A stretch of 64,000 nucleotides of DNA, from the IMG/VR virus record IMGVR_UViG_3300045988_047309, positions 1-64,000 of that record; one strand, written 5' to 3'. Below are positions 1,491-55,560 of this stretch, in pieces (the first letter of the stretch is position 1; each line of letters opens with the position of its first letter). A model generated the notes under the pieces. The model was not told where the DNA came from. It searched no databases and saw only the letters and a program-made list of their open reading frames with translations. Made by a program: the position numbers and the translations under genes. This DNA is from a virus.

Positions 1491-1542
1491 CTCCTTAATA
1501 ACAACCTTTTAACCTATAAACCAAAAACCTATACTTATAACA

Positions 1543-1981: not shown

Positions 1982-2011
1982 TATCATTATTAATAATTTA
2001 TAATTTCATAT

Positions 2012-2653: not shown

Positions 2654-2656
2654 CCT

Positions 2657-3793
2657 ATGAAAGCATCAGACATGTTACAACAAAATAACGGCTTGAAGAC
2701 TACACAGAGTGTACTCAACAAGCAGCAGAGTGGGGTGGATGTGGCTCAAAAGGTGGCACAGACTCAGGCTCCAGTATTCACACAGCAGCAACTTGATGCG
2801 GCTGGCAAGAAGATTGACCAGATAAACGCTGCCACTCCCACCGATGGGGCTATGAAGGCAGCTAAGGCTAAGACTATCGCCACACAACAGGCCATCGCCA
2901 ATGGGGTGGACGTGAATCAGGGTGTCCCAAGCGATGAGGAAGATAAACCATCTGTCCCTATTGTCAAGAAGGAGGAGCCGAAACATCAGGCTAAGCAGTT
3001 ATCTTATGCGGATATGTATAAGATGCTGAATCCTGAGCAAGAGGAGACGGCAGAACAGAAGGAGAGAAGGGAGAAGAAGGAACGCACAAAGGCTCGTATC
3101 GCTGCAATCGGTGACGGTCTGCGTGCGCTCAGTAATATCTACTTCGCTACTAAGGGTGCCAAGGTGGTACACAATCCTGAGTCGGATATGACTAAGGTGG
3201 TGAATAAGCGCAAGGAGTACATGGATGCTCAGAGAGAAAGAAATCAGGCGGCATGGCTGGCTGGTTATCAAAGGGCGATGGCTCTTGATGAGGAAGCCCG
3301 AAAGAACGACCTGACTCTTGCGGAGCAAATCAGGTATCACGATATGATGAATGAAAACAATAAGACAAAGGCTGACCAAGGACAGCAGAGAATTGATATT
3401 AACAAAATGCGTATTACCAATCAGCAGGAATACAATCAGGCAAGGCTTGAGCTGGATAGACTTAGGATGGAAGATAAGATTACTCAAAGCGAGAAGGAAC
3501 TTGCTATCAAATACCTGAATGCACGAGCTAAACAAATCGCTCCAAACAGGTCTGGAGGTGGTCGTGGCAGTTCTTCTAAAGAAGACTGGGACGCTGAATA
3601 TCTCAAACTGAATGGAAAGTATCCTTCTGAGGTAGCAAATGCTAATCAAACCGTAGCAAAGGGAGGTATCAAACCAAATACTGCTGCTGGACGAAAGCAA
3701 GTTGTGAAGATAGTCAGAAAGAAGATTGCTCATAAGGGTGGCGGTACTTCTTCTAAAAGAAGTGCTAAAAGTAAATTTTCAATTCATCATTAA
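2657..3793 (+). CDS. Gln/Lys-rich low-complexity protein (378 aa), probable internal virion protein
   Basis: Composition and position directly upstream of the giant ORF. Ends KSKFSIHH. Confidence 0.55.
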   Translation: MKASDMLQQNNGLKTTQSVLNKQQSGVDVAQKVAQTQAPVFTQQQLDAAGKKIDQINAATPTDGAMKAAKAKTIATQQAIANGVDVNQGVPSDEEDKPSVPIVKKEEPKHQAKQLSYADMYKMLNPEQEETAEQKERREKKERTKARIAAIGDGLRALSNIYFATKGAKVVHNPESDMTKVVNKRKEYMDAQRERNQAAWLAGYQRAMALDEEARKNDLTLAEQIRYHDMMNENNKTKADQGQQRIDINKMRITNQQEYNQARLELDRLRMEDKITQSEKELAIKYLNARAKQIAPNRSGGGRGSSSKEDWDAEYLKLNGKYPSEVANANQTVAKGGIKPNTAAGRKQVVKIVRKKIAHKGGGTSSKRSAKSKFSIHH

Positions 3794-3804
3794 AAAGAAA
3801 CAAT

Positions 3805-6800: not shown

Positions 6801-9800
6801 GTCAACACCTATCGAAGATAACATAGACTACTCTGATATAATCAGAGAGGATGGTAAGGTTCAGATGGTAGATGTTTCTGATAAGGATGGAAATAATCTG
6901 TTCCCTGATGCTAAAGATGTTTTCTATATCCAAGGAAACAAGATGAGAACCAAGTTTGTTTATATTGATGCAAATGGAGAGTTGAAGACTCAGAGTTTCC
7001 CTACTGGATTGGTTAAGATAAAGACAAGGGGTGAAGTATCTGTTGATGATTACAAGAAGTATCGCAATACGTTACTCTCTGCTGAATCTTCTGCCATACC
7101 TGAATCCTCAATGATAGAGGATAATAGTGGCACAATAGAGGCTAATAGAGGTGGAATAGAGGTTGAAGATAACACTCAGCCTTTATCGGAAGCTGATGCT
7201 GACAATGTAATCGCCCAGATGGAATCAAGTGCAGAGACCGCTCCTGATTTGGAACTTACACCAGACAACTGGACAGCAGAGTTTGGTGAAGATGGAATCT
7301 TGTCTACTCCTATAGGTGATGTGAAGATGGGAGAGAATCAGGTGGCTAAGTTGTTTGAGAAAGGTCGTTCCAAGGAGTTTGGTATGATTAAGCCAACGCT
7401 TACGAATCCTGATGTGATAATCGAGGTTCCTTCTCATTCTGCTGATGGCAATGAGGAGCGTTCATCATCTTATCTGTTTATCAAGACTTTCTTGGGTAAG
7501 AATGGCAAAAAGGTGTACTATTTCAAGTCTGTAACCATCAAGAAGGATGGTCTTGAAATCAGCATTAGCAGTAACTATGACAGAGCAAAGAGAGTAAAGG
7601 AGGCATTAATGAAAGGGAAGTTGCTATATCGTAAGAACGATGGCGCACAGACCGAGCAGAACCAGCCTTCTACTTCTGTGGCAACTTCCCAAGAGGATGC
7701 TGCTGGCTCTTCTGAAAGCAAATTTACAAACATTTCTGCAAACGACAATGAAAATAATGAAAGTTTAACATTTGAAGATGGTACTCCTATCCCAGTTGAT
7801 GAGAGTGGTGAGACTGACCTTAGTCAGACTGATGCTGCTCATGCTGCTGAGTGGTATGACAATAACCTCGGTGAGGATGCAGATGATTGGCTGGATGGAG
7901 AAATCAAGAAGGCTAAGAAAGTATTGGAGCAAGCAAAGAATAAGAAGTTGGCTGGCACTAAACCTTCTGAGTTGGTTGCAAGCAAGAAGGAGAAGGAAGC
8001 TGCAATAGCTGATGCCCAAGCACATTATGACTCTGCAATCTCTATCCGTGATTCGTTGAAGGAAAGAAGAATTGCCAAGGAAGAGAATACTGCTGAGGGC
8101 AGAAAGAGTCTCATTGAGAAGGCAAGAAGAAAGTTCACTCGATTGAAGAACAGCGAAGAATGGAGTGAGCGGACTGGTGACTTGTGGAATGAGACGGTTG
8201 GCAAGTTGCTACATCGTCTGTATGATGCTACAGGAATTGATGTTTTCGATGATACTCCTAATACTGTCTATGAGTATGTTGCTGAAAATGTCGGTCCGTA
8301 TAGCTTGAATTATGAAGGCAACGATAATTCGAAGGGAGTACAGCAGGAGACAGGTTTGTCTCGTTCTGACTTCGCCAAGTTAGGATGGCTCGCTGCCGAA
8401 GGCAAGGGTATGACTATTGATGCCAAAGTACACAGACTTTGGGAGAATAGGCCATCCAACTTGGAGAGTGCGGACACGCAGGAGATAAGAAACGCCTTGA
8501 TCAGTCTTATTACAAGCGGTCAGACCGCATTCCAGGCGAGAGATTATATCCTGAATCAGCGTATCGAACTTGCAGAGAGTGCGCTGGAGGAGCAACTGAG
8601 ACAGGAAGAAGATGCGGCCGAAGCTCAGAAGGCTAAGGAGGAGGAAGAAAAGAAAAAGGCTGAGCTGGAGAAGAAAGCAGAGGAGGAGAAGACGAATGAG
8701 AACAGAAATACTCCTGAACTTTCCCATGAACAACAAAAAGCTATGGAAGAGGGCGAGAAATTAGGTTTTCCTGCTGTTGACAAGGAAGGCGAACCTATCA
8801 ATCAGAATGTCATAGAACTTGCTAACTGGGCAAAGGAACAAGGCTTAGAGATAGACCCTACATCTAAGTCGAATAGCTACGCTGATTTGTACGTGATGTG
8901 TAAGGAAGGCTTCGGTGTCAGTACGTTGGTTCCTGATGTTGGCGAGGATATTAATCAGGTATTCTATTTCCCTGACAACGTACAAGGTGAGCAATTAGCT
9001 AAACTGCAAGAGGAATTTAATGTAGGTCGTGACCTTAAACACTCTGCTGATATGAATAGCGAACTAACAGAAGGTGTTATGTTCTATGATGGAGATACAG
9101 CGAGAGAGTTCAGAGATTTTGTTAATGAGAAGGTAAATGAGGAGAGCAAGACTATTGAAGTTCCTGAGGATGCAACGGATGATGCTCCTTTGGGTGAGCA
9201 ACTTGATGAATCCGACCTTCCTTTCTCTGCTAAGGATAACGGCCAACAACAGACAACATCTGAGCGTGCTGCTGACGTAGAGAAGAACAAGGTGGATGAT
9301 ATGAAGGTCGTTGACAACATCGTGGGGCAGAAGACTCGCAAGGCTTTCGATAGGTTAGCTAAGATGATGGGTGCCAACATTCAGTGGCAGTACTCAGACA
9401 AGTTGGGTAACGGCTGGATTCAGGAGACTACGGATGCCGATGGCAACGTGCATCGTACTATCTTCATCACTCTTGACTCTTCTATCACGGAAGGTGCTCA
9501 GTTTATCTTCGGCCACGAAATGACTCACCAAATCAAGAACCTGAACCCTGCTGCATACGATGAGTTGACTCAGCTTGTTCTTGATACCTATGGCTCTGAT
9601 GCCTTCGACAAGGCGGTAGATGAGACCATGCAGAGATATTCTGATGCAGGATTCTCTGGACGTGATAGAGATTACTATGCTGAGGAGGTTGTTGCTGATG
9701 CGGTAGGCGAAATGATTCGTGACCTCAACTTGGCTCACACTCTCGCTATGAAGATGTCTCATCCTCTGCTCGCTGCTATACATGAGATATTGCAGAAGAT

Positions 9801-12800
9801 TAAGTTGGCGTTCTATGGCACTGAGTATAGCGATGCGACCAAGAATATCATCCGCTCCATCGAACAAGCCTATGTGAAGACTGCAAAGGGTCTGGTGGAG
9901 AACTCTGATACTGGCGAAGATGTTTCATTCTCTCTCCGTCAAAAGCCTGAGCCTAAGAAGAAGGGTGTTGGCTACAAGGTGTTCGTATTGAAGGATGGCA
10001 AACTCTATCCGCCAATGGTAGCGAACCCTGATGGTGCTGCTACTCCAGTAGGTGTATGGCTTGATGCTGATGCTGCTCCTATTGCAGGAGAAAGCAAGAC
10101 TGGCAGACCTCAAGTTAAGCAGGGCGGTAAGGGAACACAAGGCGGTAGCGGTAAGTTAGCCTATAGACCAGGATGGCATCTTGGTGTGGTTCCTTACGCT
10201 ATCCAGTTTAACCGCAAGGATGCTGAGGGAAACAAGACTCTCTTCCCTAAGAACTTTGTCTTCGCTGAGGTGGAGTATGCTGCTGATGTAGATTATCAGG
10301 ATGAAGCTCGCCAAGAGGGTATCAATCCTTCGGGCAAGTATCAGCATTCTCTCGCTGGCTTGAAACATCTGCCAACTGATGGATATTATATGTATCGTAC
10401 CAACCCGAACCCTGAGACTGATCCTTGGGTGATTACTGGTGCGATGAAGGTGAACCGTATCTTGACCAGAGCAGAGCAAGCAGACTTGGTAATCAAGGCT
10501 GGACGTGAACCTCAGCAGATTCAGGAGGGTGATATTGTTACTGATGATGTTGTGAACAGCATCAATCAGGAGATAGCTGATGCTCCTAAGTTCTCGTTGA
10601 AGGTATATCATGGCAGCGGTGCTGACTTCACAGAGTTTGACTTCGACCACATGGGCGAGGGTGCTGGCTCCCAAGTATTCGGTTGGGGCGGCTATGTTAC
10701 TTCATCAAAGAAGATTGGTAAGAGCTATGCGAATCTTGTAGATGCTAACGCTCCTTATCAAGATGTAGAATATGTTGGTAATAACGCTCATGAATATACT
10801 GATATAGTTGCTGGCTTGTTTAATGGTGGTCAGAGAGATTATGATGATGTTAAGGAGTTCTTGCAGAATGGCTATAATTCCGACAAGGATAATGCTCGGA
10901 AGAAACAGATGTTGGAATGGTTTGAAAGTACAAAACCATCTGATTGGAAGTCTGTTAATGATGGAAAACGTAACCTCTATGAAGTGGATATTCCTGATGA
11001 CAATGGCAGCAACTATCTGGATTGGGAAAATCCTTTGAATGAGGAACAGATAAATGCTATTCGTGATGCTTTGGCTAAGAATGGTGTTGATGTTTCATCT
11101 TGGGAAAATAGAGGTTTCAAACTGGATTTGCCTTTTAAAGATGTATATGCAGCAGTTCTTCCAATGATGATGCGTTGTGAGCCAAAGGAAGTAAGCAAGT
11201 TCCTCTCTTCTCTTGGTTTTACTGGCATTAAATATCCTGCTGGTACTATCCAAGGTGGCGCAGAGGAAGGCGATACCAACTATGTTATTTTCAAGCCTGA
11301 GGATATGAAAATTACTCAGCATACCAAGTTCTCTCTCCGTTTGAAGGCTGCTATTGAGGAAACAGAAACCAATCCATCTGACGCACAGAAGGAGAGTGGC
11401 AACTACAAGAAGGGACACATCAAGTTCGGTGGCTACGATTACACAATAGAAAATCCAAAGGGTTCAACTCGTTCAGGCAAGGATGCCGATGGCAAAGAGT
11501 GGAAAATAACCATGCACGATACCTATGGCTATATCCGTGGTAAGTTCGGTAAGGATGGCGACCATCTGGATATGTTCATCAACGACAAGGCAGACCTTGA
11601 TAATTGGAATGGTGATGTGTTTGTCGTTGACCAAGTGAATCCTGATGGCTCATTTGACGAACACAAGGTGATGTACGGATATGACTCTATGGATGATGCA
11701 GAAAAGGCTTATCTCGCCAACTATAGCGATGGTTGGCAGGGTCTTGGAAATATTACTGGAGCAAGTAAGGATGAGTTCGATAAGTGGCTTGATACGAGCA
11801 ATCGTAAGCTAAAGCCGTTTGCTGACTATGCAAAGGTGAAGTTTTCTCATGCGCAGTCTGTTTCTAAACCTCGTTACTCGTTGAAGGACATAAAGCCTAT
11901 TGGTGTTGGTGCTTTTGGAAATATATACAATCAGTTCCGTGGCAAATCTAAAGCAGCTATAGAGTTCTTGAAGAAACTTGGTAGCGGTGAGGCAACTGCT
12001 GCTTTACATCATCATACTATTGGTGATATATCTTTGGTATGGGGAGATAAAAAGGCTGGTCTTGATAAGATTCTAAGAAAGCATCCTGAGGTTGTTGATA
12101 ATTTGCAGTCTATCATAGATAGTATGGAGGTTGTTCAAGAAAGCGATAATCGTGTCAAGTTGGAATCGCCTACACACTTTGCTGTAGTAAGTAAGGAGTA
12201 TAAGGGCGAACCAAGAGAACAATGGTTATTGACTGCATACGAAAAAAGAGAATCCTTGGAAAATGACAAGAGTATGGACACTGCCACTTCTTCGTTGGGA
12301 GGTGACACAGCTCTCTCCCAATCCAAGGGTTCTGCTGCAAAGATAGACAATTCTTCTGAAACAGCCAAGGAAAATGGCGAAAAGTTTTCATTGAAGGATG
12401 AGAAGACTCTTGCAGGAGTTCATAACATTACAGAGGAGAAGCTGAGAAAGGCTATCAAGCAGGGTGGTCTTGCCAATCCGTCTGTGGCAGTTATTGATTC
12501 CAGTAAGCAGAACCATGAGGACTATGGTGACATTTCTCTGATATTGCCTTCTGAAAAGGTGGCCAAGAGAACTGGAAAGAACGCTGGCACTTGGCAGGGC
12601 GATGCTTGGACGCCTACCTATCCGCAAGTAGAGAGACAGATGAGCAATAATGGGGCTGCAAAAGCATCTAAGGATGTTAGTTCTGTCCCTGGCGATATGT
12701 ATAACGAGGTAAGAAGAGGACTTGACCGATGGCTGGATGGTGGAGAAGGAAACTCTGCTATGGCTTATATTTTCCTTCACGAAAAGGGTGTGGCACCTGA

Positions 12801-15800
12801 ACCGAAGAAGATTCAGCATAAGTTTAGTGATGACGTATATAACGAGTTGAAGTCTATTACTGCTGGAGACTTCAATATCTATGGTATCGGAAAGGCTGAT
12901 GCCCAGAAAGTATTGGGTATGTACATTGATGCCAAGTTTGATGGCGATAAGGATTTGTATGAGGAGAAGACCAAGGCTTGGTTGGAAAGAAACAAGTCTA
13001 TCGTTGATGCTGGTAATAAGGGTGGAATGAGATATACCATTGCCAAAGAGAATGTTGAACTATACGATGAATATGGTTTCAACTATAAGAGTGTGCAGAC
13101 TTTCGTCCGTGATGTAGAGTATGACCATCGCAAGACAGGTGTTGACATGAATGCCACGCTTAATGATGTTGAAGACTACATTAAGACCAATAACCTGACG
13201 GATGAATTCAATACTTGGCTGGAAGGTAAAGAAAAGGAGTATGGTATTAAGGAGGTAATCTTTGATGGCTTCACTCCAAGCGGCAATCGTAGATATGTAC
13301 CAAACACCTTGGAGAATGTTTCCAAGATAATGAAGAAACAAGGCAGAAATGGTGCAACTGGAATATCGGTATCTTTCCAAAACTTCGCTGCAAGTTTGAT
13401 GCCTTCTTATGGAACATTGAAGGATATTCGCTCCAAGAAAGGCTTGTTGACTTCTGATCATGAGGATTTAGATAAGTTCAACGAAAAGTGGTCTAAAGTA
13501 TTCTTTGAACTTGGCATGAAGTGCCAGCCTGATGCAACTGGAACTTTTGATGATTATGGTTTGGCAAGGCTCTCTGAGGCGGCAAAGACAAGTGATCCAC
13601 AAGCCTATTTGAAGAAGGAGTACAATGTGGACTTCTCAGATGGGGATACGAAACGTTTGAAGGAAATGGTTAAGGCTATCAAGGAAGAGTCCCCAGCCAT
13701 GTACTTTGAAACAAAGTTTGAACGTCCTGTTGGCTTTAACGAGTTCTCTTCTGCTGTGGTCCCAACAACGGCAAGTGACGAGGTTAAGCAGGCTTTGCAG
13801 AATGCTGGTGTTCAGATTTACGAGTACGATAAGGAGAAGGAAGGAGACCGCAGTCGTGCCTTCAATGAAGCTATCAACGGTAGTGACAATATTCGTTTCT
13901 CTCTGAAATCAATGATGGAGAAACCTGAGGGATGGAAACAAGCCAACAAGAAGGCTATACATATTGCAGAAGCTATAGAGCGTGACCCTAAGTTCTCCTT
14001 GAAGAACCTTGATGGCACTCTCATTAAGGCAGGAACCTATTTCAGTGGTGGTGGTCTTGTTGAGGAAGGCTTGAAGGGTATCATCGACCCAGTGGTGGCA
14101 GTGGAGTATGACGAGAAGATAAGCGGTGTATATCGCAATAACTTCGGGCAGCACATCGTTACTGCTGATGTTCGTGATGTTGACCCTAAGGAGTTGGTGA
14201 AGCAGATAGATGGCGAGGTGGAGTACTTCCATGCCAGCCCAGTCTGCAAGAACTACTCTCAGGCGAAGAGTAACCATGCAGAGGTGGAACTTGACAAGGA
14301 GACTGCTGCAAGTACTGCCGAGTTTATCAATGCTATTAAGCCAAAGGTGGTGACCATTGAAAACGTGAAGGGATATAAGGATTCGGAAGCGATGAAGATT
14401 ATCACGGATGCCCTGGATGCCAACGGTTATACTTGGGATGCAGATGTGTATAATGCTGCTGACTATGGCGGCTACACCAACCGAGAGAGGTTGATTGTCC
14501 GTGCGGTTCGTGATGGTAAACTCCCTGAAAAGCCAAAGAAGATGGCACACAAGAGCGGATGGTATGAAGCTGTGGCTGATATTATCCCGACCCTGACCGA
14601 GAAGAAGAATGGTGTGGCTCCTTGGATGGATATTCGCTTGAAGGCTGATGGTATTGACTGGAGAAACATTGACAAGCCATTGTATGTGATGGGTAGTGCT
14701 TATGCTGATGGCAAGATTCCTCATGCTTTTGCTGACGAACTCCTGCCAACACTCAGAACCAAGAGTGGTGATGTGATTGTTATGCCTGATGGCAAGGTAT
14801 ATCGTGCTATGGGCAGAGTGCTCGCAAGAGTATCAGGAGTGAGCGATGATTACAAGATGCCATTCTCCGAGAACCTGAGCCATACCATCATCGGTAATGG
14901 AATACCTACCCAGTTGACGGAACATGTGATTGCTCCTCTTTTGCAGAACACCTTGCGCCCAACTACTCCTGATGATGGTAATACCAAGTTCTCTCTCCGT
15001 GGCTCCACACCTTACGACAAGCAGATGGAAGAGTGGATGGAGAAGAACCATTTAGAAAAGGGTGCTGTTCCTATGGAAAAACCTGTCATGAAGGAAGGTG
15101 AGAACATTTTTGATTATGCCAACAGAATGGTAGAGTGGACTCGCAATCAGAACTTGTGGAAGACCGCTCCTAAGCAGACTGGATTCCAAGATGCACTCGA
15201 CAAGTGGAAGGCTGACAATGGTCTTTCTCCTGATGCTTATCCACCTGTCCGTCCTCATCGTGAAAACTATTCAACAGAAATCGGTTATACAGAAGACTTG
15301 GAGGAGTACAACAAGAAGAAAGAACTCTGGAAGTCTGCTCCAAAGCCAAAGGACTTTGATTTGTCCGTTGACTTGGAGGATATGAACAAGCAGCTTCGTA
15401 ATATCAGAAGAGCGGTTCTGAATCAGAAGAACTATGACCAGAGAACGGTTAAGGCGGTATCTGACCTTGTAAGAAAGATGCTCAACATTGGATGGGGTGA
15501 CGGATTGAGCAGGGGTAAGGTAGGCAACCTTCTCTCTGCTGCCAAGAATGCCACTGGAGCCAATGACGTGAAGAAGTATCTCGACAAGGCTATGGGAATC
15601 CTTGCTGAAAACTATCTCAACCGTCTCTCTACTGCCTACGACAACCTTATCAATACCAGGGGTGCAAGGGCAGACCAGAGCGGTGTGATTAAGATGGGTT
15701 CTCTTGATGCCAAGGGTCAGGCTTTCATGAGCGAGTATAAGAAGGCTATCAATATGGATGATAGCTCTCTGAATACCTATATAGCAAACATTGAGGAAGA

Positions 15801-18800
15801 TTCTGCCAAGAATGAAGATAATGTGGAAATGAATGACTACAGACTGGCTGGTATTCAAGCTGCCATCATGTATAAGCAGCAGATTGGCGGCAATGATGCC
15901 GATATTTCCGAGTTGAAGAGACAGATTGGTGAGTTGAAGAATAAGAAGGATGCTACCAAGGAAGACAAGGATTTGTTGAAGTCCTTGGAAAAGAAACTCT
16001 TTGAGAATAAGTTTGACCGCATCACCATGTACGAGAATCTTCTGAATAATATTCAGAGAATGGTGAAGGAGAGTAAGGGTAGGGCAAAGGAGTTCCGAGA
16101 GGAGATTACTGAGCACAAGAATGAAATCCTGCATCGTGCCAACTTGGATTTGGAAGGTGTGGATTCTGCCTATTATGATACCACAACTGCCAAGAAGAAG
16201 TTTGTGAATAATCCTATTCTCCGTTTCGTCATGTCTTCAACATACACATTTGAGCAGTTCTTGAAGTTCTTTGGCAGACATCATGCAAATGGTGAAGGCT
16301 ATCTCTACAACTACTTTATGTCTGAATGGCAGGATGCAGCAGACGAACAGCAGTTGTATAATGAAATGAACCGCAATGCCCTTGATGAGAAGACCAAGGA
16401 GTTGTTCGGCAAGAAGAACTTCACAAAACTGGTAGGTATTGATGGCAAGGGTATGAAGGAAATGGACGTTGAGGTTACTGACTACTCCAACAAGGAGACT
16501 GGTAAGCGAACCATCCATCTGAAACAAGGTCAGATGCTCTATATCTATCTGGTCAATAAGGAGACTGATGGAGAAATGAAACTCCGTGCTATGGGTATCA
16601 CAGAGGAAAAAGTGGCTGAAATCGAGGAAAATCTTGACCCAAGAGTGAAGGCTATTGGTGAGTGGTTGCAGGATGAATATCTTCCTGAATGTCAGAGAAG
16701 ATACCAAGCTACCCATACCAAGTACTTCGGTGCTCCTATGAAGGAGGTGGAGAACTATTTCCCTCTTGCCATCAATAACCGGGCAAGAAATATCAGGGAA
16801 GATTTGAATCAAGATACTGATGCAATAAGTCGATTGGCTGGTACTTCTACTGGTGCTATTATTACACGAAGGGTGAACGTAATTCCTCTTGATATAGAGA
16901 ATGCCGATGCTTTTGCGGTTGCCTTCAACCATCTGGATGAAATGGAAGAGTGGTCTGCTTACTTGCCATTTATACAAGATGTCAACACCTTACTCTCTTC
17001 TACTCATTTCAGAAATCAGGTAATGAACATGTCTTCTGCTGCCTACGGAAGTGGTAAAACCTTATGGGAGGAGTTTAAGAAAGTGGCTCAGATTGCTGCT
17101 GGAACATACAAGCCAAAGGTTGACAATGGTATGATGGATAGCAAGATTGCTGCTGTTGTCGGTGGTATTGCTACCGCAAAGATTTCAGGTCGTTTGTGGA
17201 CTGCCTTTAAACAAACTCAGTCTGCAACCACGTTCCTTACTGAATGTGACCCAGCTAGATTCTTGTGGTATGGTGTTAACCCATACGGCTCATGGCATTG
17301 GGCTTATGATAACCTTCCATTGTTCCGTAAGCGTGTAGAGCAGTTGACTGCTGGTGATGTAAAGGTAAGACAATTCTTGGATGAGTTAGAGAAATACCAT
17401 GACTGGACAAAGACTATTGCAAAGGTTGGTATGTCTCCTAATATACTTGTTGACTCTGTAACTTGTGCGGTTGGTGCTCGTTCCGTTTATGAGACTGAAT
17501 TGAATAAACTGACCAAGTTGGGCTATTCAAAAGATAAGGCAGAGGAGAAGGCTATACAAAAGGCATCGCTTTCATACAATAAGACTCAGCAATCGTCTGA
17601 GGGTGCTTTCTTATCTCCAATGCAGGTTGATAGAACATACGTATCTGCTGCTTTGTCGCTCTATAAAAATGCTAACTATGCTTATGGTAGAAAGAAGATT
17701 GAAGCAATTAGAGGTATAGCCAAGACGTATAGATTCTGGGGTGAACATAAAAATGCCATGATTGGTTCAATGACAAGACAGATTATGGATGAGGATGGTC
17801 TTGATGAAAATGTTGCTAATGCTATCGCAAAAAGAGCATATACAAGAACATTTTGGTATAATATAGGTACGCTCCTGAATTACATGACTATCGTTCCGAT
17901 TTCTTGGGCTGCATACAAGGTGCTTCTATATCTCCTGAATGGTGATGATGATGACAAGAAAAAGAAGATGATTGAGGAAGCGTGCTTAAAAGGATTTGCT
18001 ACCACAACATTTGATGATTATGTGATTCCGTTTGCTTCAAATGTCCTGAATGCAGGATTGAACATAGAAGATGGCAAGATAGGTTTTGATACTGATGTTT
18101 TCAAGTATCAGAATTTATATATCAACCCAGCTACATCTGACTTGTCGAATATCTATTCTATGATAGGTAATCAGAAATGGTGGTCTGCTGGCAACAAATT
18201 CGGTATGCTTGGCATTCAGATGCTCGTAGGATTCAATCCTGAGACCATAGGAGCACTCTATCAGGCTTACGATGAGTTTGATAAGGATAGCGGTAATATG
18301 CCATTGGAGATTAAACTTGCCGTATTGAAGTCTATAAGTGCCCCTGAGGAGAGTATAAGAGGTCTCTATATGGATGAACTCGGTCTTGATAATGAGGATA
18401 GAACCAAGGTTCCATTGTCGGTACTGGAGCAGAGATATGCCGAGAGACAGATTAATCGTGACAACCTTCTGTCTCAGATTGCCATGCCGAAGGAAACTTT
18501 TGATGGCTATGTTGAAAAGTACAAAAAGTCTTTCGAGAAGAAGATTCAGGATAAGATGGATAAGATGGATGCTTACGACCAGAGGAAGTTTGATGCTATC
18601 TTTGATACTACTACAGACCCTGCATTGAAGGGTATGATGGAAAAGAAACGTACCAAGGATGCCAATGCTGCTGCTGACGAGCAGATAGCAAAGGAAGGTC
18701 TGAATCAAGAGAAGAAGGGTAAGGAGCCTAGCGAAGAAGCTTACGATGCAGTAAAGATGTCTATTGATGTGGCGGAAGATAATGCTATCAGTACCTACAA

Positions 18801-19065
18801 TAAGGTGCTCAACAAGCGATACGCTGCCCTGAATGATGAGTACAACAATCAGACAGATGCAATGAAGTACATCTTTATGAGTAAGCATCCAAACTTCAAG
18901 GCATACAAGGATTTGGAATCTGAATATACCACGTATGGCAAGAAGATGAAGGAGTTGAAGGAAAAACTGGTTTCTGCTGACGGATATGATGCCAAGCAGA
19001 CAATCCTGAAACAGATACGTGCCGAAAGAGAGAAGTTCAGTGAACTGCAATCCAAGGTAAGATAA
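3805..19065 (+). CDS. giant polyvalent protein (5,086 aa)
   Basis: Single uninterrupted ORF. Contains an HEMTH zincin motif, a DGDHLD pyrophosphatase-like motif and C5-MTase motifs I/IV/VI/VIII/X. A recurrent KFSL[KR] linker separates the modules. The C-terminal ~1,350 aa carry a hydrophobic helix. Confidence 0.9.
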   Translation: MPINSKVKRLYDALKADGGDVGTPEEFNSWFFKPGKEGYKNRKSVYDTFKADGADVGKNYEEFGKWLGLHAVYPTVNKYHQQMLNSVDPNKSRASELTHRAVSQAKRGMNNVRKPVRGAVVNKQGKKVSEFDITPAKTVEDLDREYAQETTKNWENELHDQMADADKDAAKISDMFKSFIGSMDEVGSVWGNMTRGGGIAGTPHSVTTNNGLMKNTEARQLLIAGDYNRKRRELLQLEQDSRNGAFFDNHSFFRGMYDAAKDTGFLTGGAFNLISGFTMLKTKQDLDNGVHTKAGDMLMQQAVKNSNAQSQYGDNQGWMYTGGVITTNMAPFIVQIASAGFSKGLSTSIGKVVQGAASKVALGTMKKAAGFASADLAKNIGKVTGLTTKAFGKAIQYGIVGAAQANTVGLGNVANDVINRYTGQVYQDEQGNYKFGTFDSDGKLVHEGGEDFLTAFVKGDAAQTIEFATELAGGGIDAVGTALKNFVTKGGKKIINKYNMENVSKVIDFLLNNKVSKNVRYLKAGADRTLGKVEVNSIVGESLEEELGIIANTVFTGDNKISDLWDEKQQSQIWGGMLLSIGLMKGVVAPFHAYNAKQYYSYKHKLNKADVNLSQLLGKEKWEELRNQIDATTNEDMPEMVNRINRDVALGKNRQPVREYIQNLLIMRGYDIGNMLAAKKAVEDKGEGVSVKNMEKNQAYQQGRDAYGYDTHEIQLDQEDKQKSLAQLLGISEQQLASMSDEELESFSGRDDNIDRAIYDYQLSSARYEGVVDNARDQIDLEVQRAAQAVDMYTDKSRNTIRNATIKASGGLEDYGVYIISGNIATHDDGSIDVSNSDDMILYYDPTTNTVEHADAMMFAELGSEENADEVRSQAMADAKEKAIKETTGIIDGVVEVGTQFKTVGADGTEHTYEVLADNGDGTAMITIDGNIPTELVKGENVNIPVSFEELQKMKDESDQQRLQAAKAQREQVEKERAEQQMQAQTTQAENPTQEDNIQSTPIEDNIDYSDIIREDGKVQMVDVSDKDGNNLFPDAKDVFYIQGNKMRTKFVYIDANGELKTQSFPTGLVKIKTRGEVSVDDYKKYRNTLLSAESSAIPESSMIEDNSGTIEANRGGIEVEDNTQPLSEADADNVIAQMESSAETAPDLELTPDNWTAEFGEDGILSTPIGDVKMGENQVAKLFEKGRSKEFGMIKPTLTNPDVIIEVPSHSADGNEERSSSYLFIKTFLGKNGKKVYYFKSVTIKKDGLEISISSNYDRAKRVKEALMKGKLLYRKNDGAQTEQNQPSTSVATSQEDAAGSSESKFTNISANDNENNESLTFEDGTPIPVDESGETDLSQTDAAHAAEWYDNNLGEDADDWLDGEIKKAKKVLEQAKNKKLAGTKPSELVASKKEKEAAIADAQAHYDSAISIRDSLKERRIAKEENTAEGRKSLIEKARRKFTRLKNSEEWSERTGDLWNETVGKLLHRLYDATGIDVFDDTPNTVYEYVAENVGPYSLNYEGNDNSKGVQQETGLSRSDFAKLGWLAAEGKGMTIDAKVHRLWENRPSNLESADTQEIRNALISLITSGQTAFQARDYILNQRIELAESALEEQLRQEEDAAEAQKAKEEEEKKKAELEKKAEEEKTNENRNTPELSHEQQKAMEEGEKLGFPAVDKEGEPINQNVIELANWAKEQGLEIDPTSKSNSYADLYVMCKEGFGVSTLVPDVGEDINQVFYFPDNVQGEQLAKLQEEFNVGRDLKHSADMNSELTEGVMFYDGDTAREFRDFVNEKVNEESKTIEVPEDATDDAPLGEQLDESDLPFSAKDNGQQQTTSERAADVEKNKVDDMKVVDNIVGQKTRKAFDRLAKMMGANIQWQYSDKLGNGWIQETTDADGNVHRTIFITLDSSITEGAQFIFGHEMTHQIKNLNPAAYDELTQLVLDTYGSDAFDKAVDETMQRYSDAGFSGRDRDYYAEEVVADAVGEMIRDLNLAHTLAMKMSHPLLAAIHEILQKIKLAFYGTEYSDATKNIIRSIEQAYVKTAKGLVENSDTGEDVSFSLRQKPEPKKKGVGYKVFVLKDGKLYPPMVANPDGAATPVGVWLDADAAPIAGESKTGRPQVKQGGKGTQGGSGKLAYRPGWHLGVVPYAIQFNRKDAEGNKTLFPKNFVFAEVEYAADVDYQDEARQEGINPSGKYQHSLAGLKHLPTDGYYMYRTNPNPETDPWVITGAMKVNRILTRAEQADLVIKAGREPQQIQEGDIVTDDVVNSINQEIADAPKFSLKVYHGSGADFTEFDFDHMGEGAGSQVFGWGGYVTSSKKIGKSYANLVDANAPYQDVEYVGNNAHEYTDIVAGLFNGGQRDYDDVKEFLQNGYNSDKDNARKKQMLEWFESTKPSDWKSVNDGKRNLYEVDIPDDNGSNYLDWENPLNEEQINAIRDALAKNGVDVSSWENRGFKLDLPFKDVYAAVLPMMMRCEPKEVSKFLSSLGFTGIKYPAGTIQGGAEEGDTNYVIFKPEDMKITQHTKFSLRLKAAIEETETNPSDAQKESGNYKKGHIKFGGYDYTIENPKGSTRSGKDADGKEWKITMHDTYGYIRGKFGKDGDHLDMFINDKADLDNWNGDVFVVDQVNPDGSFDEHKVMYGYDSMDDAEKAYLANYSDGWQGLGNITGASKDEFDKWLDTSNRKLKPFADYAKVKFSHAQSVSKPRYSLKDIKPIGVGAFGNIYNQFRGKSKAAIEFLKKLGSGEATAALHHHTIGDISLVWGDKKAGLDKILRKHPEVVDNLQSIIDSMEVVQESDNRVKLESPTHFAVVSKEYKGEPREQWLLTAYEKRESLENDKSMDTATSSLGGDTALSQSKGSAAKIDNSSETAKENGEKFSLKDEKTLAGVHNITEEKLRKAIKQGGLANPSVAVIDSSKQNHEDYGDISLILPSEKVAKRTGKNAGTWQGDAWTPTYPQVERQMSNNGAAKASKDVSSVPGDMYNEVRRGLDRWLDGGEGNSAMAYIFLHEKGVAPEPKKIQHKFSDDVYNELKSITAGDFNIYGIGKADAQKVLGMYIDAKFDGDKDLYEEKTKAWLERNKSIVDAGNKGGMRYTIAKENVELYDEYGFNYKSVQTFVRDVEYDHRKTGVDMNATLNDVEDYIKTNNLTDEFNTWLEGKEKEYGIKEVIFDGFTPSGNRRYVPNTLENVSKIMKKQGRNGATGISVSFQNFAASLMPSYGTLKDIRSKKGLLTSDHEDLDKFNEKWSKVFFELGMKCQPDATGTFDDYGLARLSEAAKTSDPQAYLKKEYNVDFSDGDTKRLKEMVKAIKEESPAMYFETKFERPVGFNEFSSAVVPTTASDEVKQALQNAGVQIYEYDKEKEGDRSRAFNEAINGSDNIRFSLKSMMEKPEGWKQANKKAIHIAEAIERDPKFSLKNLDGTLIKAGTYFSGGGLVEEGLKGIIDPVVAVEYDEKISGVYRNNFGQHIVTADVRDVDPKELVKQIDGEVEYFHASPVCKNYSQAKSNHAEVELDKETAASTAEFINAIKPKVVTIENVKGYKDSEAMKIITDALDANGYTWDADVYNAADYGGYTNRERLIVRAVRDGKLPEKPKKMAHKSGWYEAVADIIPTLTEKKNGVAPWMDIRLKADGIDWRNIDKPLYVMGSAYADGKIPHAFADELLPTLRTKSGDVIVMPDGKVYRAMGRVLARVSGVSDDYKMPFSENLSHTIIGNGIPTQLTEHVIAPLLQNTLRPTTPDDGNTKFSLRGSTPYDKQMEEWMEKNHLEKGAVPMEKPVMKEGENIFDYANRMVEWTRNQNLWKTAPKQTGFQDALDKWKADNGLSPDAYPPVRPHRENYSTEIGYTEDLEEYNKKKELWKSAPKPKDFDLSVDLEDMNKQLRNIRRAVLNQKNYDQRTVKAVSDLVRKMLNIGWGDGLSRGKVGNLLSAAKNATGANDVKKYLDKAMGILAENYLNRLSTAYDNLINTRGARADQSGVIKMGSLDAKGQAFMSEYKKAINMDDSSLNTYIANIEEDSAKNEDNVEMNDYRLAGIQAAIMYKQQIGGNDADISELKRQIGELKNKKDATKEDKDLLKSLEKKLFENKFDRITMYENLLNNIQRMVKESKGRAKEFREEITEHKNEILHRANLDLEGVDSAYYDTTTAKKKFVNNPILRFVMSSTYTFEQFLKFFGRHHANGEGYLYNYFMSEWQDAADEQQLYNEMNRNALDEKTKELFGKKNFTKLVGIDGKGMKEMDVEVTDYSNKETGKRTIHLKQGQMLYIYLVNKETDGEMKLRAMGITEEKVAEIEENLDPRVKAIGEWLQDEYLPECQRRYQATHTKYFGAPMKEVENYFPLAINNRARNIREDLNQDTDAISRLAGTSTGAIITRRVNVIPLDIENADAFAVAFNHLDEMEEWSAYLPFIQDVNTLLSSTHFRNQVMNMSSAAYGSGKTLWEEFKKVAQIAAGTYKPKVDNGMMDSKIAAVVGGIATAKISGRLWTAFKQTQSATTFLTECDPARFLWYGVNPYGSWHWAYDNLPLFRKRVEQLTAGDVKVRQFLDELEKYHDWTKTIAKVGMSPNILVDSVTCAVGARSVYETELNKLTKLGYSKDKAEEKAIQKASLSYNKTQQSSEGAFLSPMQVDRTYVSAALSLYKNANYAYGRKKIEAIRGIAKTYRFWGEHKNAMIGSMTRQIMDEDGLDENVANAIAKRAYTRTFWYNIGTLLNYMTIVPISWAAYKVLLYLLNGDDDDKKKKMIEEACLKGFATTTFDDYVIPFASNVLNAGLNIEDGKIGFDTDVFKYQNLYINPATSDLSNIYSMIGNQKWWSAGNKFGMLGIQMLVGFNPETIGALYQAYDEFDKDSGNMPLEIKLAVLKSISAPEESIRGLYMDELGLDNEDRTKVPLSVLEQRYAERQINRDNLLSQIAMPKETFDGYVEKYKKSFEKKIQDKMDKMDAYDQRKFDAIFDTTTDPALKGMMEKKRTKDANAAADEQIAKEGLNQEKKGKEPSEEAYDAVKMSIDVAEDNAISTYNKVLNKRYAALNDEYNNQTDAMKYIFMSKHPNFKAYKDLESEYTTYGKKMKELKEKLVSADGYDAKQTILKQIRAEREKFSELQSKVR
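9235..9927 (+). other. zincin-like metallopeptidase module of the giant protein
   Basis: FIFGHEMTHQ (HEMTH at 9514-9528) with downstream EEVVADAVGE. Bounded by PFSAK and SFSLR linkers. Confidence 0.7.
11341..11874 (+). other. inorganic-pyrophosphatase-like module of the giant protein
   Basis: YTIENPKGS...YGYIRGKFGKDGDHLDMFI...DEHKVMYGY. DGDHLD (11554-11571) fits the PPase D-x-D-x-x-D signature apart from His at position 4. Confidence 0.6.
11887..12384 (+). other. small module, tentatively a Barnase/EndoU/RelE-like nuclease domain as found in polyvalent proteins
   Basis: GDISLVWGDKKAGLDKILRKHPEV...FAVVSKEY...WLLTAYEK pattern. This is recollection of the family only and needs a profile search. 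Confidence 0.3.
14005..14988 (+). other. DNA (cytosine-5) methyltransferase module of the giant protein
   Basis: YFSGGG (motif I, 14038-14055), HASPVCKNYS (motif IV, Cys codon at 14245), TIENVKG (VI), TNRERLIV (VIII), IGNGIP (X). Confidence 0.8.
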
Positions 19066-53468: not shown

Positions 53469-53505
53469 CTGGTGGGAAAGGTAAGAATGATACGTGAGTT
53501 ACTTG

Positions 53506-53793
53506 TTAAAAGAGTGATAGCTGACCCTCCTTGTCGTGATAGTGATTCCCTGATGGGAATATCAGTTCCTCGAACATAGCAGACAGGCAGTTGGTGACTA
53601 TTGAATTTCCTGCCAGGGCATAGAGCTTGCTTTTGCAGATGATGGGTGATCCGTCTTTCTCCTTGCTCAGGAGTTTGTCTATGTCAGCTTCATGTACTCC
53701 CATCAGACGGAAACAATCTCTTGGAGTGTACTTCCTGATGGAGATGGAGTATTTCTTGCCGTTGGGTGCGGTGTGAATGATTTCTTTATTCAT
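53506..53793 (-). CDS. C5-methyltransferase C-terminal fragment (motifs IX and X)
   Basis: IRKYTPRDCFRLMGV (IX) and AGNSIVTNCL (X). Confidence 0.8.
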   Translation of the reverse strand: MNKEIIHTAPNGKKYSISIRKYTPRDCFRLMGVHEADIDKLLSKEKDGSPIICKSKLYALAGNSIVTNCLSAMFEELIFPSGNHYHDKEGQLSLF

Positions 53794-53803
53794 TGTCCAG
53801 TTT

Positions 53804-53989
53804 TCATACCTCTTTAATGATTAATACTAAATTGTCTGTGAAGAAACTTGTGATGGTGTTACTAAGTCCATCGGTACGTGGTGTTCTGTGTTTCATCTTT
53901 GCTTGGAAGCTGCACTTATGAGTGTCGTATGCTTTGCGCATCATCCTTCCTTCGACTGTGCGTTCCTTGTAGAGGATGGCTTTTCTCAT
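53804..53989 (-). CDS. C5-methyltransferase TRD-like mini-ORF C (61 aa)
   Basis: RTVEGRMMRKAYD...PRTDGLSNTITSFFTDNLVLIIKEV. ATGA overlap with ORF B. Confidence 0.6.
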   Translation of the reverse strand: MRKAILYKERTVEGRMMRKAYDTHKCSFQAKMKHRTPRTDGLSNTITSFFTDNLVLIIKEV

Positions 53990-54147
53990 GTCTCTTTAAT
54001 GATTAAGAATAGTGGTATGCAGCCACCCCCATGGCCCATGGCAGAATTAAGGGTAGGAGAGATTCCTTTAGTGGAATAGACCCTGGTATGCTGTTCGATT
54101 CTGCCTTTAATATGGAGGTTTGCCAACTTTATAATTTTGTCACACAT
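53986..54147 (-). CDS. C5-methyltransferase TRD-like mini-ORF B (53 aa)
   Basis: Hand translation MCDKIIKLANLHIKGRIEQHTRVYSTKGISPTLNSAMGHGGGCIPLFLIIKET. TAATG overlap with ORF A. Confidence 0.6.
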   Translation of the reverse strand: MCDKIIKLANLHIKGRIEQHTRVYSTKGISPTLNSAMGHGGGCIPLFLIIKET

Positions 54148-54275
54148 TATATTTCCTTGATGATTAAAACTCCACCTTTCGGATAATGAGCCGTGTCAAT
54201 GAAGTTCATTACACTTGCCTTACCGATACTGGCGGTGACTGCAACTGAGCATCCGTCAGCCGTTTTTGGTATCAC
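54147..54275 (-). CDS. C5-methyltransferase TRD-like mini-ORF A (42 aa, GTG start)
   Basis: Hand translation (M)IPKTADGCSVAVTASIGKASVMNFIDTAHYPKGGVLIIKEI. The GTG overlaps the TAG of the N-terminal fragment (TAGTG). Confidence 0.45.
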   Translation of the reverse strand: MIPKTADGCSVAVTASIGKASVMNFIDTAHYPKGGVLIIKEI

Positions 54276-55018
54276 TATCTTCGGGGGGGGTAGAGTTTTT
54301 GGATTGCTTCATTGATGTCTGCTTTGGAGAGATACTTTTCAAGAAGGGGTTGGGACATGAAATATTCTTGAGATACATTGTCTTCAAGTATGTCCTCAAC
54401 CTTTGTGGTGAGTGGTATCGGTGAAGGAAAATGATACTCAGGGTTCGGGTCCTCGTCTGTTCTTAGAATGGAAAAGACAAATATTCGCTCTCTGTTCTGA
54501 GGAATACCGTAGTCCTTTGCGTTCAAGACCTTATAGAATGACGCATAACCAAAACTCTCCAAATCTTTGAGATATTTGAAAAAGAAGGGCAGCATTTTCT
54601 TGGTGAGCAGTCCTTTGACATTCTCCAACATCACATACTTGGGGTGCTTTGCTTCTATCATACGTCTTTCCTGAAAGATAAGTGACGATCGTGTTCCGCT
54701 GCCTTCCTCTGCGCCTTTCCGCAGTCCTGCCATTGAGAAATCCTGACAGGGTGAAGACCAACTGATGAAATCGAAGTCAGGAACCTCGTTCCAGTCTATC
54801 CTCGTCACATCACCGAAGTTAGGAGCTTCCCATCCGTGAAGCAGCCGATAAGCCTGAATAGCAGATGGCTCTATCTCGGATATGCCCACCACCTTGAAGT
54901 CGAAATCAGGGTGTTTTTCTTTCAGATACTTAAACGAAAGAGACTGACTGCCATATCCTGCGAAAGCCTCGAAGACTCTTAATGGGTTTTGCTGGTTGTA
55001 GTTGCTTGTTGCTATCAT
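54275..55018 (-). CDS. C5-methyltransferase N-terminal catalytic fragment (motifs I-VIII)
   Basis: FAGYGS (I), SPCQDFS (IV), ENVKG (VI), QNRERIF (VIII). The ORF stops 3 codons after a C8 tract. Confidence 0.85.
   Translation of the reverse strand: MIATSNYNQQNPLRVFEAFAGYGSQSLSFKYLKEKHPDFDFKVVGISEIEPSAIQAYRLLHGWEAPNFGDVTRIDWNEVPDFDFISWSSPCQDFSMAGLRKGAEEGSGTRSSLIFQERRMIEAKHPKYVMLENVKGLLTKKMLPFFFKYLKDLESFGYASFYKVLNAKDYGIPQNRERIFVFSILRTDEDPNPEYHFPSPIPLTTKVEDILEDNVSQEYFMSQPLLEKYLSKADINEAIQKLYPPRR
54283..54290. repeat. G8/C8 homopolymer at the 3' end of the methyltransferase N-terminal fragment
   Basis: Read directly. One extra C would fuse the N-terminal fragment to mini-ORF A. Confidence 0.9.
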
Positions 55019-55020
55019 TC

Positions 55021-55560
55021 TTATAACAGATTTGTAGGGATGCCAAGTCGTGCAAAGGTCCCGTTGTCACGATATATCTCCAACTGCGTTTTGCATAAGC
55101 TATCGGGATTCTTTTGCAGAAGCTCCAACATGCCGATAATGCGTTGACGAAGAACGTTGTCCTTTGTTCTTTTAGTATGCAACTCCTGTTCGGCCTTTGT
55201 TTTTGAGATAAGCTGGCTTATCTTAGAAGGGTGCACGTTGGCGGCTACTGGCGGTTCTTTTGCTCCTATAAGTTCGTCCTCCCATCCTCGCTGATTGAGG
55301 AACGTTTGGAAATTCTTGCGATACTGCTTGTCGGGTTGGGAGAGTACATAGAGAGGAATGTACTCTATAGCAGCCTTGCGGTCTTTCTTGCTCATAGAGT
55401 TCCACTTCTTTTCCAACTTAGATTTGCAGCCGACTTTCTTTTCGTAGAGATTCCATGCCCGATCAAAGGTATATTCGTCTTTGACTTCCCTGGGTGGAGA
55501 AGTAACTTTGTAGCCGTTTTCTGTAAGAAATTGTATAGCCTGTCTGATTGCTTCTGTCAT
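55021..55560 (-). CDS. hypothetical replication/recombination-module protein (179 aa)
   Basis: Operon context only. Confidence 0.5.
   Translation of the reverse strand: MTEAIRQAIQFLTENGYKVTSPPREVKDEYTFDRAWNLYEKKVGCKSKLEKKWNSMSKKDRKAAIEYIPLYVLSQPDKQYRKNFQTFLNQRGWEDELIGAKEPPVAANVHPSKISQLISKTKAEQELHTKRTKDNVLRQRIIGMLELLQKNPDSLCKTQLEIYRDNGTFARLGIPTNLL

Follow-up and report, generated by a model that had tools for sequence, protein, structure and literature searches.

A phage locus encoding a putative cytosine-5 DNA methyltransferase as separate catalytic, target-recognition and closing pieces with length-variable homopolymer tracts

In the 64,000 nucleotides of virus record IMGVR_UViG_3300045988_047309 analysed here (the whole stretch is called the window), a putative cytosine-5 (C5) DNA methyltransferase is laid out as a row of small open reading frames (ORFs): a catalytic piece (alpha, or N fragment), three cassettes (A, B and C) resembling target-recognition domains (TRDs), a five-codon bridge and a closing piece (beta, or C fragment). 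The sequences establish a conserved, selected, modular and split multi-TRD locus with start/stop coupling at each boundary, and polymorphism in tract length alters which modules are in frame or fused. On the basis of these sequence comparisons, we consider it probable that the locus specifies a fragmented multispecific C5-methyltransferase whose TRDs are translationally coupled mini-subunits switched by slipped-strand tracts. As a part of this explanation, the locus is likely to be an orphan phage-borne C5-methyltransferase that has been taken apart into genes, its activity being putative.

Organization of the array

The elements of the array and their coordinates in the window are as follows.

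54275..55018, minus strand: alpha piece (N fragment), 247 aa, with motifs I-VIII and the beginning of the variable region; its last residues before the stop are KLYPPRR
54283..54290, minus strand: poly-C tract C8 (G8 on the plus strand) at the alpha/cassette A junction, candidate slipped-strand switch
54256..54312, minus strand: short +1-frame ORF (MKQSKNSTPPEDSDTKNG, then a stop), 18 codons, starting at the usual ATG of cassette A
54147..54275, minus strand: predicted TRD cassette A (..PKTADGCSVAVTAS..HYPKGGVLIIKEI, then a stop), 42 aa, GTG start
53986..54147, minus strand: predicted TRD cassette B (MCDKIIKLANL..RVYSTKGISPTLNSAMGHGGG..LFLIIKET, then a stop), 53 aa, HhaI-type TRD core
53804..53989, minus strand: predicted TRD cassette C (MRKAILYKERT..PRTDGLSNTITSFFTDNLVLIIKEV, then a stop), 61 aa, ATG in an ATGA overlap
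53790..53807, minus strand: five-codon relay (bridge) ORF, MKTGQ and a stop, with an ATGA overlap at each end
53506..53793, minus strand: beta piece (C fragment), motif IX (IRKYTPRDCFRLMG) and motif X (GNSIV), 95 aa, without a TRD of its own
53801..53829, minus strand: junction repeat copy 1, end of cassette C, encoding LIIKE with TAA in both other frames; the stop and then the next ATG follow directly
53983..54011, minus strand: junction repeat copy 2, end of cassette B, same design as copy 1 (83% identity)
54144..54172, minus strand: junction repeat copy 3, end of cassette A, more divergent, at 66% identity; stops close two frames, and cassette B is read in the third

An earlier note on this DNA had described a methyltransferase split into consecutive overlapping ORFs, and every element and overlap was found where it had been placed, on the minus strand, the ORFs being six in number. 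They span 55018 to 53506 (1513 nt), and their overlaps in order along the array are TAGTG, TAATG, ATGA, ATGA and ATGA. Relative to the N fragment the frames are 0, 2, 1, 0, 2 and 1; each ORF does lie one frame back from its predecessor, as the note had pointed out, and this regularity follows from the 4-nt and 1-nt overlaps and is not a separate signal. The reading that alpha stops three codons after the C8 tract was also correct (CGA AGA TAG). The mini-ORFs end with VLIIKEI (A), FLIIKET (B) and VLIIKEV (C), and these endings are encoded by a family of 29-nt direct repeats in three copies. The 15-mer previously reported there has its exact copies at 53810-53824 and 53992-54006; the variant lies at 54153-54167, shifted by one base from the position given earlier. 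Cassette B holds a G5 run (54026-54030) where relatives have G7 or G8, and the five-codon bridge, which is present also in the related loci L002 and L008, has an A4 run where relatives have A6 or A7.

Catalytic and closing pieces

Alpha matches the C5 cytosine methyltransferase family PF00145 with E = 1.6e-52 over profile positions 2-226 of 324, and carries the FxGxG, PC, ENV and QxRxR motifs (FEAFAGYG, SSPCQDFS, ENVKGL and PQNRER). Beta alone matches positions 272-322 weakly, with E = 0.03, below the cut-off. Motifs I-VIII and motifs IX-X are carried by separate polypeptides split in the variable region, as in enzymes of the M.AquI type. AlphaFold2 (AF2), when given an alignment, modelled the catalytic domain with a predicted local distance difference test score (pLDDT) of about 90, and the best structural matches in Foldseek were M.HhaI, M.HaeIII and M.MpeI.

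The two pieces recur as separate proteins. In the protein collection, where the exact N-fragment protein of the window is recorded as P0121 (DAP62914.1), most alpha homologues, to a lower limit of about 50% identity, have lengths of 243-264 aa and a common end point; membership of the dominant clusters runs from hundreds to thousands of sequences, and the longer homologues are mostly small clusters or singletons arising from deletions or indels. The best 120 of 259 beta homologues are all 82-167 aa long and none is full length, most being either 95-110 aa (no TRD) or 141-159 aa (with a TRD of the type called F below fused in frame). In L039 and in P0024 (329 aa, 8 members, 12 contigs), the N fragment is joined in frame straight to the C fragment, reading ..AIQKSIQIRKYTPRD.. 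without any TRD, and this is a recurrent deletion product.

Cassettes as target-recognition modules

When the N fragment, one of the cassettes A, B or C, and the C fragment were joined, each construct gave one continuous PF00145 match (positions 2-322 of 324, 199-202 bits); when the N fragment was joined directly to the C fragment, the match stopped at position 250. The phmmer match of the chimera containing cassette B to M.HhaI reaches residue 288, about 40 residues into the cassette, and AF2 without an alignment gave this chimera a pLDDT of 33. KIIKLANL..RVYSTKGISPTL..GGG of cassette B probably aligns with KTVRLGIV..RIYSTDGIAITLSAYGGG of M.HhaI, the segment with both recognition loops. The core x-T-(L/I)-x-(S/T) is common to all cassettes, and cores of this type are said to have been described by Kumar and colleagues in 1994 as a hallmark of C5-methyltransferase TRDs. 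The plan of a module is a hydrophobic strand first, then the recognition core, often a GGG loop, and the LIIKE strand last. Judging from these matches, cassettes A, B and C are each a complete predicted TRD module.

Homologues of cassette B form 37 clusters, all of 47-93 aa and mostly of exactly 53 aa, and there is a natural B-beta fusion, P0180, with 61 member sequences. In the divergent locus L086, a homologue of cassette C stands alone between an ATG and a stop of its own (37% identity, E = 1e-9), and an exhaustive phmmer search with this cassette gave 77 representative clusters, in which the homologues are free-standing proteins of 60-72 aa or tandem copies inside long proteins. One of the long proteins, P0337 (612 aa), has all of motifs I-X in a single contiguous enzyme, together with several in-frame TRDs, including homologues of cassette C, each ending with ..DNL(I/L)(V/F)EP and having no stop or ATG at its boundaries; P0313 (239 aa) is a beta subunit with several TRD-like modules.

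Tandem TRDs lie between motifs VIII and IX in the window (three) and in relatives (up to six), as they do in multispecific C5-methyltransferases. These are single polypeptides, and the array has a stop and a start at every TRD boundary; it would therefore work like that family without being a classical member of it. Because the same TRD types are found in contiguous enzymes and in beta subunits, the window appears to stand at the fragmented end of a series that runs from the contiguous multispecific enzyme through the two-piece enzyme to the many-piece array.

Related loci and selection

Six contigs from other samples carry the array (the whole of it, or the part reached) with 0 mismatches and with C8, and the assembly error for which the earlier note had allowed was not borne out by this reproducibility. 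SRR8090771, SRR4408286 and ERZ28649208 are among the samples with this phage. A scan of viral contigs gave 80 loci whose N fragments are 82-98% identical; many are from one metagenome project (3300045988) and others from independent ENA and Logan samples. In 79 of the 80, the C fragment lies 0.3-0.8 kb downstream in a separate reading frame, and the stretch between N and C fragments is a chain of short frames each having a LIIKE-like end. The single continuous ORF that the note had named as a possible finding in relatives is thus not what these loci have, and all 79 keep the split.

The cassettes of the 79 loci follow a fixed order: N fragment, A or A2, E, D, B, C, F and C fragment. Their presence varies, giving 37 architectures, and that of the window (N fragment, A, B, C and C fragment) occurs three times. 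A beta piece without a TRD is found in about 20 of the 79 loci and in protein clusters of 337, 127 and 63 members. Indels are rare inside the cassettes and cluster at G runs, and at the alpha/A junction most relatives have C4 with a +1 offset.

We calculated the ratio of nonsynonymous to synonymous polymorphism (pN/pS) by the pooled Nei-Gojobori method over unique intact copies in the annotated frames. The values were 0.12 for the N fragment, 0.17 for A, 0.08 for B, 0.12 for C, 0.20 for D, 0.23 for F and 0.08 for the C fragment. In the other two frames the ratios were 0.5-4.5, those for cassette A being 1.65 and 2.59. The low ratios in their own frames indicate that the mini-ORFs have each been maintained as a protein, as strongly as the catalytic fragment. 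The modular multispecific enzyme that the earlier note had proposed is accordingly in agreement with the fixed-order gain and loss of cassettes, with this purifying selection and with the single PF00145 match obtained for each cassette, and the occurrence of the same TRD types in frame inside contiguous multi-TRD methyltransferases lends it further support.

The same construction was found with other junction motifs (..VYEET and a stop, ..IYE.., and ..ILIEYE and a stop) at N-fragment identities of 62%, 55%, 49% and 37%. These divergent loci are L081-83, L084, L086 (alpha 49% identical), L088 in an Alistipes metagenome-assembled genome (MAG) and L089 in a Prevotellaceae MAG; L084, L086, L088 and L089 fall within 37-55% identity and have kept the array. 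By this comparison the split is judged to be old and widespread. L089 (positions 800-3855 of CADADN010000004.1) has a permuted arrangement, in which cassettes ending with ..ILIEYE and a stop, with G8-G10 tracts, lie upstream of an ORF that has motif IX (IRKLSPRECLTLMG) and then motifs I-VIII, and one more cassette (..GIIIEYY and a stop) lies downstream.

Among deposited phages, a nucleotide search gave no match to the array, and a protein search gave only relatives of less than 60% identity and no cultured phage with the array. The BMBphi methyltransferase is contiguous, and the Javan prophages have a two-piece form.

Junctions between the reading frames

In this family the ATG of each following ORF always overlaps the stop before it or lies directly against it, no matter which cassettes are neighbours. 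The ATGA form was counted 38 times from B to F, 14 from B to C, 11 from A to D and 8 from B to the C fragment; the TAATG form was counted 29 times from A to B and 16 from E to B; and D is connected to B by a 20-nt overlap (18 times). The 15-mer TTAATCATTAAAGAG encodes LIIKE and, in both other frames, also TAA, and no frame stays open across the B/C and C/bridge junctions, where stops in all three lie between -16 and +3 nt relative to the next ATG. L086 also closes all frames at its junction with a different sequence, the next ATG being embedded in the Y-E codons (TATGA). The statistical weight of the three-frame closure is modest, because off-frame stops are common in AT-rich coding sequence and the repeats do not count as independent cases. 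We infer from this design that the LIIKE junction is a frame-reset and restart element.

RNA folding downstream of the C8 tract (88 nt) and of the junctions, compared with shuffled sequences, gave no signal (z = 0.06, 1.44, -0.13 and 0.98), a result that speaks against stimulation of frameshifting by RNA structure and agrees with initiation regions being open. The heptamer C CCC CCC is formally present, and with the first of these z values downstream of it the site falls short of a programmed -1 frameshift signal; a scan of the LIIKE junctions for a slippery heptamer found none. The promoter and terminator scan was unremarkable, and its one 'terminator' (54275-54293) corresponds to the G8 run as read from the non-coding strand.

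Three other ways of joining the frames were considered and rejected. Reassignment of stop codons leaves the frames unjoined, whether TGA or TAG is read through; ribosome hopping between the identical LIIKE 15-mers would land just before a stop; and deletion between LIIKE repeats, as a route to fusion, preserves the -1 offset.

In L055 and L070, a 124-aa homing-endonuclease ORF (NUMOD4 and HNH_3) occupies a cassette-like position between A and B, about 851-1244 nt after the start of the N fragment. It is preceded by ..VLIIRRIK and a stop, and ends with ..EVLIIKRVS and a stop that overlaps cassette B as TAATG. Homing may be directed at the LIIKE junction, or cassettes may move by way of it.

Homopolymer tracts and their phases

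The C8 tract is the only G or C run of at least 6 in the 64-kb window. Members of the clusters of at least 90% identity have C4, C5, C7, C8, C9 or C10 at this site, these lengths having been taken from the protein ends expected for each C count. Alpha ends with KLYPEDFNTENG at C4, KLYPRR at C5, KLYPPEDSDTKNG at C7, KLYPPRR at C8 (the window) and KLYPPPEDSDTKNG at C10, and the C9 variant reads KLYPPPKIAIPKTADGCS...VLIIKEI, an in-frame alpha-A fusion of 290 aa (P0123). Three phases can be distinguished. At C4, C7 and C10, alpha ends with ..EDSDTKNG and a stop, and cassette A is in frame with its upstream ATG; at C6 and C9, alpha and cassette A are fused; at C5 and C8, alpha ends with ..RR and a stop, the upstream ATG leads to an 18-codon dead end, and A can be started only from GTG. 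All three phases occur naturally, including a C9 fusion (L106) beside C8 (L001), which strengthens the earlier suggestion that the C8 tract could be a phase switch.

The usual ATG of cassette A lies 13 codons upstream of its PKTADGCS core, in frame with A, and is kept in 70 of 74 loci. The codon for Asn236, which creates this ATG, is AAT in all 65 unique N fragments, other conserved Asn residues being mostly AAC; this bias gives weak support to the use of the upstream ATG. In the window, little or no product of cassette A is probably made; B and C are open, and beta comes after them by way of the bridge.

Near-identical genomes differ at these tracts. L001, a relative of the window with C8, and L106 with C9 show 0 substitutions over 5873 nt and are one C apart, and this C9 fuses the catalytic fragment to cassette A. 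L081 and L083, with 0 substitutions over 5689 nt, differ only at two poly-G tracts of the array (G9/G8 vs G8/G7), one of which opens or closes an F-beta ORF. Between the near-identical contigs L107 and L108 there are two indels, both in homopolymers of the array: cassette B has G7 vs G8, and the bridge ORF has A6 vs A7. In the 79 loci, G or C runs of at least 6 occur at 1.2 per kb in the arrays vs 0.011 per kb in 620 kb of flanks, an enrichment of about 100-fold, and in more distant relatives G7-G11, A9 and C8 runs are packed into the cassettes. The array shows what is expected of contingency loci: its intragenic tracts are over-represented, shift the frame when their length changes, and vary in length among genomes that are otherwise identical.

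At the A2/E junction, the poly-G length modulo 3 predicts the product in 28 of 28 loci: with a remainder of 0, A2 and E are fused into one module (10 loci); with 1, the product is truncated (7 loci); and with 2, a short A2 ends with VLIIKKL (11 loci). The three phases are about equally populated, and this distribution is the pattern expected of contingency loci. The stretch concerned is dual-coding in these 28 loci (e.g. L002, L003 and L006, about 840-870 nt after the start of the N fragment): the same bases read either GVLIIKKL and a stop, the normal end of a cassette, or GGTDNKKTISRKLL.. running into cassette E without an ATG (the two readings can also be given as VLIIKKL vs GTDNKKT). The frame is selected by a G4-G10 tract, and an A7 run lies in the same stretch.

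Long poly-G tracts were found also in other small genes near distant arrays, at 1123 (G8) and 2022 (G10) of L084 and at 5226 and 5355 (G7) of L086. These distant-relative phages may hold further contingency loci.

Proposed mechanism and alternative explanations

In the mechanism that we propose, ribosomes would move from ORF to ORF by termination and reinitiation, and the LIIKE junction, closed in three frames before the next ATG, would reset the reading frame, so that a module that has been switched off would leave the translation of later modules and of beta intact. The peptide of a module would dock non-covalently between alpha and beta and complete the small domain; it would thus resemble a specificity subunit, and the phage would make several enzymes with different targets. 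Slippage at the tracts would produce subpopulations methylating different sets of sites, and such variable methylation may be a hedge between hosts whose restriction has to be blocked and hosts that attack methylated DNA. A possible rationale of the split is that a frameshift in a TRD of a contiguous enzyme would remove motifs IX-X and kill all specificities, whereas separate ORFs with frame-reset junctions would allow each specificity to be switched independently. The three-component form of this proposal, in which free peptides of 42-61 aa are exchangeable specificity subunits between a common alpha and a closing beta, each switched alone by its tract while the three-frame stop/restart junctions keep the rest translated and the phage methylome becomes variable, is put forward tentatively, as a serious possibility that we stop short of calling probable.

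Several points weigh against the mechanism as a whole. To our knowledge, no three-piece C5-methyltransferase is known. The AF2 model with an alignment gave the cassette a pLDDT below 50, and docking therefore could not be judged. In the C8 phase, cassette A is out of frame with alpha and with its usual ATG, leaving it without an in-phase ATG and with GTG as the only usable start. All seven assemblies of the window's own strain read C8, and switching is seen in sister strains only. Tract lengths were read from assemblies, not from reads, and the differences could partly be homopolymer sequencing errors; the enrichment of tracts cannot be explained by such errors. Lastly, natural in-frame fusions exist (alpha-A in P0123, B-beta in P0180, and F-beta), and these could be the only active forms.

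If only covalent fusions were active, the locus would be a two-piece M.AquI-like enzyme whenever a tract change or an indel fuses a TRD to alpha or beta, and the free mini-ORFs would be reserve modules, translated only as a ribosome relay to beta and kept intact because slippage or recombination often brings them into fusion. The high frequency of fusions (F-beta in most of the 79 loci, B-beta in the 61 members of P0180), the alpha-A fusion produced at C9 and the A2/E tract toggling two TRD forms are in line with this explanation, and two-piece enzymes have precedent (PMC3404938). We nevertheless regard it as unlikely: the state of the window would be inactive, with alpha and beta both lacking a TRD, yet this haplotype is present in seven samples; TRD-less beta pieces are frequent; cassette B has the lowest pN/pS among the cassettes, though it is nearly always free-standing; and deletions between LIIKE repeats, which keep the -1 offset, make no fusions.

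The pieces might alternatively be joined during expression, by ribosomal frameshifting or RNA polymerase slippage at the C8 tract and the junctions, into one or a few long polypeptides that would correspond to a classical contiguous multispecific methyltransferase. TA C CCC CCC G at the C tract does fit the slippery pattern X XXY YYZ, and a -1 shift there would give ..KLYPPPKIVIPKTADG.., as in the C9 fusion; transcriptional slippage is plausible at the A9 or G8 that relatives have at the same junction, and the A2/E junction has A AAA AAA. Such joining is plausible only at the C tract and not at the LIIKE junctions, which have no slippery heptamer, are closed in three frames and are followed by a conserved ATG for each next ORF. 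The lack of RNA structure, the four or five successive shifts that a full-length product would need, and the C4 with a +1 offset of most relatives, which offers no slippery run, also speak against it, and we consider it quite improbable. Several frame changes within 0.7 kb, one of them next to a homopolymer, in a region much of which gene callers skip, are what a decayed pseudogene or an assembly or sequencing artefact of a once-contiguous methyltransferase would look like. This is scarcely credible for a locus with seven identical assemblies, ORF boundaries kept in 79 loci and in relatives at 37-55% identity, pN/pS well below 1 in every cassette frame, and frame changes only at junctions or tracts, with indels in cassettes rare.

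Genomic context

The window encodes a portal and a large terminase and represents a tailed phage of the gut. Next to the locus, within a replication/recombination module, are genes resembling a replication initiator, a nuclease (VRR_NUC in relatives) and the exonuclease RecE. The adjoining genes include no evident restriction gene, and the methyltransferase is therefore classed as an orphan; its role is probably anti-restriction. The occurrence of relatives in the aforementioned Alistipes and Prevotellaceae MAGs suggests that the hosts are Bacteroidales. The array region has been left largely unannotated by gene callers.

A perfect 11-nt inverted repeat (TAAGAATGATA / TATCATTCTTA) at 53482-53492 and 55013-55023 flanks the array almost exactly, one arm overlapping the N-fragment start codon and the other lying just beyond the C-fragment stop; chance alone would give roughly 0.3 such pairs in 1.7 kb, and the repeat may mean nothing. 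Elsewhere in the window, a single ORF of 5086 aa (3805-19065, plus strand) takes up about a quarter of the stretch, an exceptional length in a phage genome of about 60-70 kb.

Implications

If the products of the mini-ORFs work in trans, no DNA methyltransferase would be known to have smaller natural specificity subunits, and these products would also offer a toolkit of plug-in modules for targeted 5-methylcytosine. If the three-component form of the mechanism is true, the locus would provide a combinatorial variable methylome at the population level, a C5 counterpart of HsdS-based switching, and would extend phage contingency loci, which have been described only recently, to anti-restriction epigenetics. 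In abundant Bacteroidales phages of the human gut and rumen, a variable methylome could shape host range and affect the balance between Type II and methylation-dependent restriction. Arrays of this kind look pseudogene-like to gene callers or are left largely unannotated.

Comparison with known systems

The ingredients of the array are known, namely multispecific phage enzymes, two-subunit C5-methyltransferases, homopolymer phase variation and phage contingency loci, and their combination is undescribed in the literature searched: the full-text search gave no report in which TRDs form a series of coupled mini-genes that are switched module by module. The multispecific C5-methyltransferases of Bacillus phages studied in the Trautner laboratory (M.SPRI, M.Phi3TI, M.Rho11sI and M.H2I) have tandem TRDs with modular gain and loss. 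Like them, the locus is a phage-borne orphan with several tandem TRDs of about 40-60 aa, having a T-(L/I/V) core and lying between motifs VIII and IX. Unlike them and unlike P0337, which are single polypeptides having boundaries such as ..DNLIVEP.. without a stop or an ATG, the array has stop/ATG overlaps at all boundaries and has alpha and beta as separate genes. We know of no homopolymer switches described for the Bacillus phage enzymes.

Two polypeptides make up the working enzyme in M.AquI and in M.EcoHK31I, and monomeric C5-methyltransferases show complementation between their fragments (PMC3404938). The locus is similarly split after motif VIII in the variable region, with an alpha of about 250 aa and a beta carrying motifs IX-X (PMC3404938); most relatives of the window have the M.AquI-like form consisting of alpha and F-beta, and the Streptococcus Javan172 prophage has a two-piece form with adjacent genes of 212 and 154 aa. 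Two-subunit enzymes have one specificity, unlike the array, with its up to six extra free-standing TRD genes and often a TRD-less beta.

In Type I systems, a 1-nt overlap couples the translation of hsdM and hsdS (PMC3510504), and specificity varies through repeats or recombination (PMC7394358). The array resembles them in the 1-nt stop/start overlap and in that a separate product would supply specificity to a common catalytic core. Type I enzymes are multimeric (M2S) N6-adenine methyltransferases whose HsdS has about 400 aa with two TRDs, unlike the peptides of 42-61 aa here, and the likeness is one of proposed working mode, not of membership.

Phage contingency loci have been reported for poly-G in receptor-binding proteins of Campylobacter Fletchervirus (Sorensen 2021) and for T2/T4 (PMC12633550), and a 'phase-varion' with a Type II methyltransferase was postulated in 2023 as the first of its kind (PMC10305163). 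As in phasevarions (Type III mod, the poly-G of C. jejuni Cj0031, and the TA repeat of M. hominis dcm8/dam3), tract length in the array shifts the frame between clonal genomes. Phasevarions turn a whole enzyme on or off, whereas the tracts found here lie in or beside single TRD modules, so that single specificities could be switched independently; furthermore, one tract phase produces a fusion instead of turning a module off, and the methyltransferase is carried by a phage.

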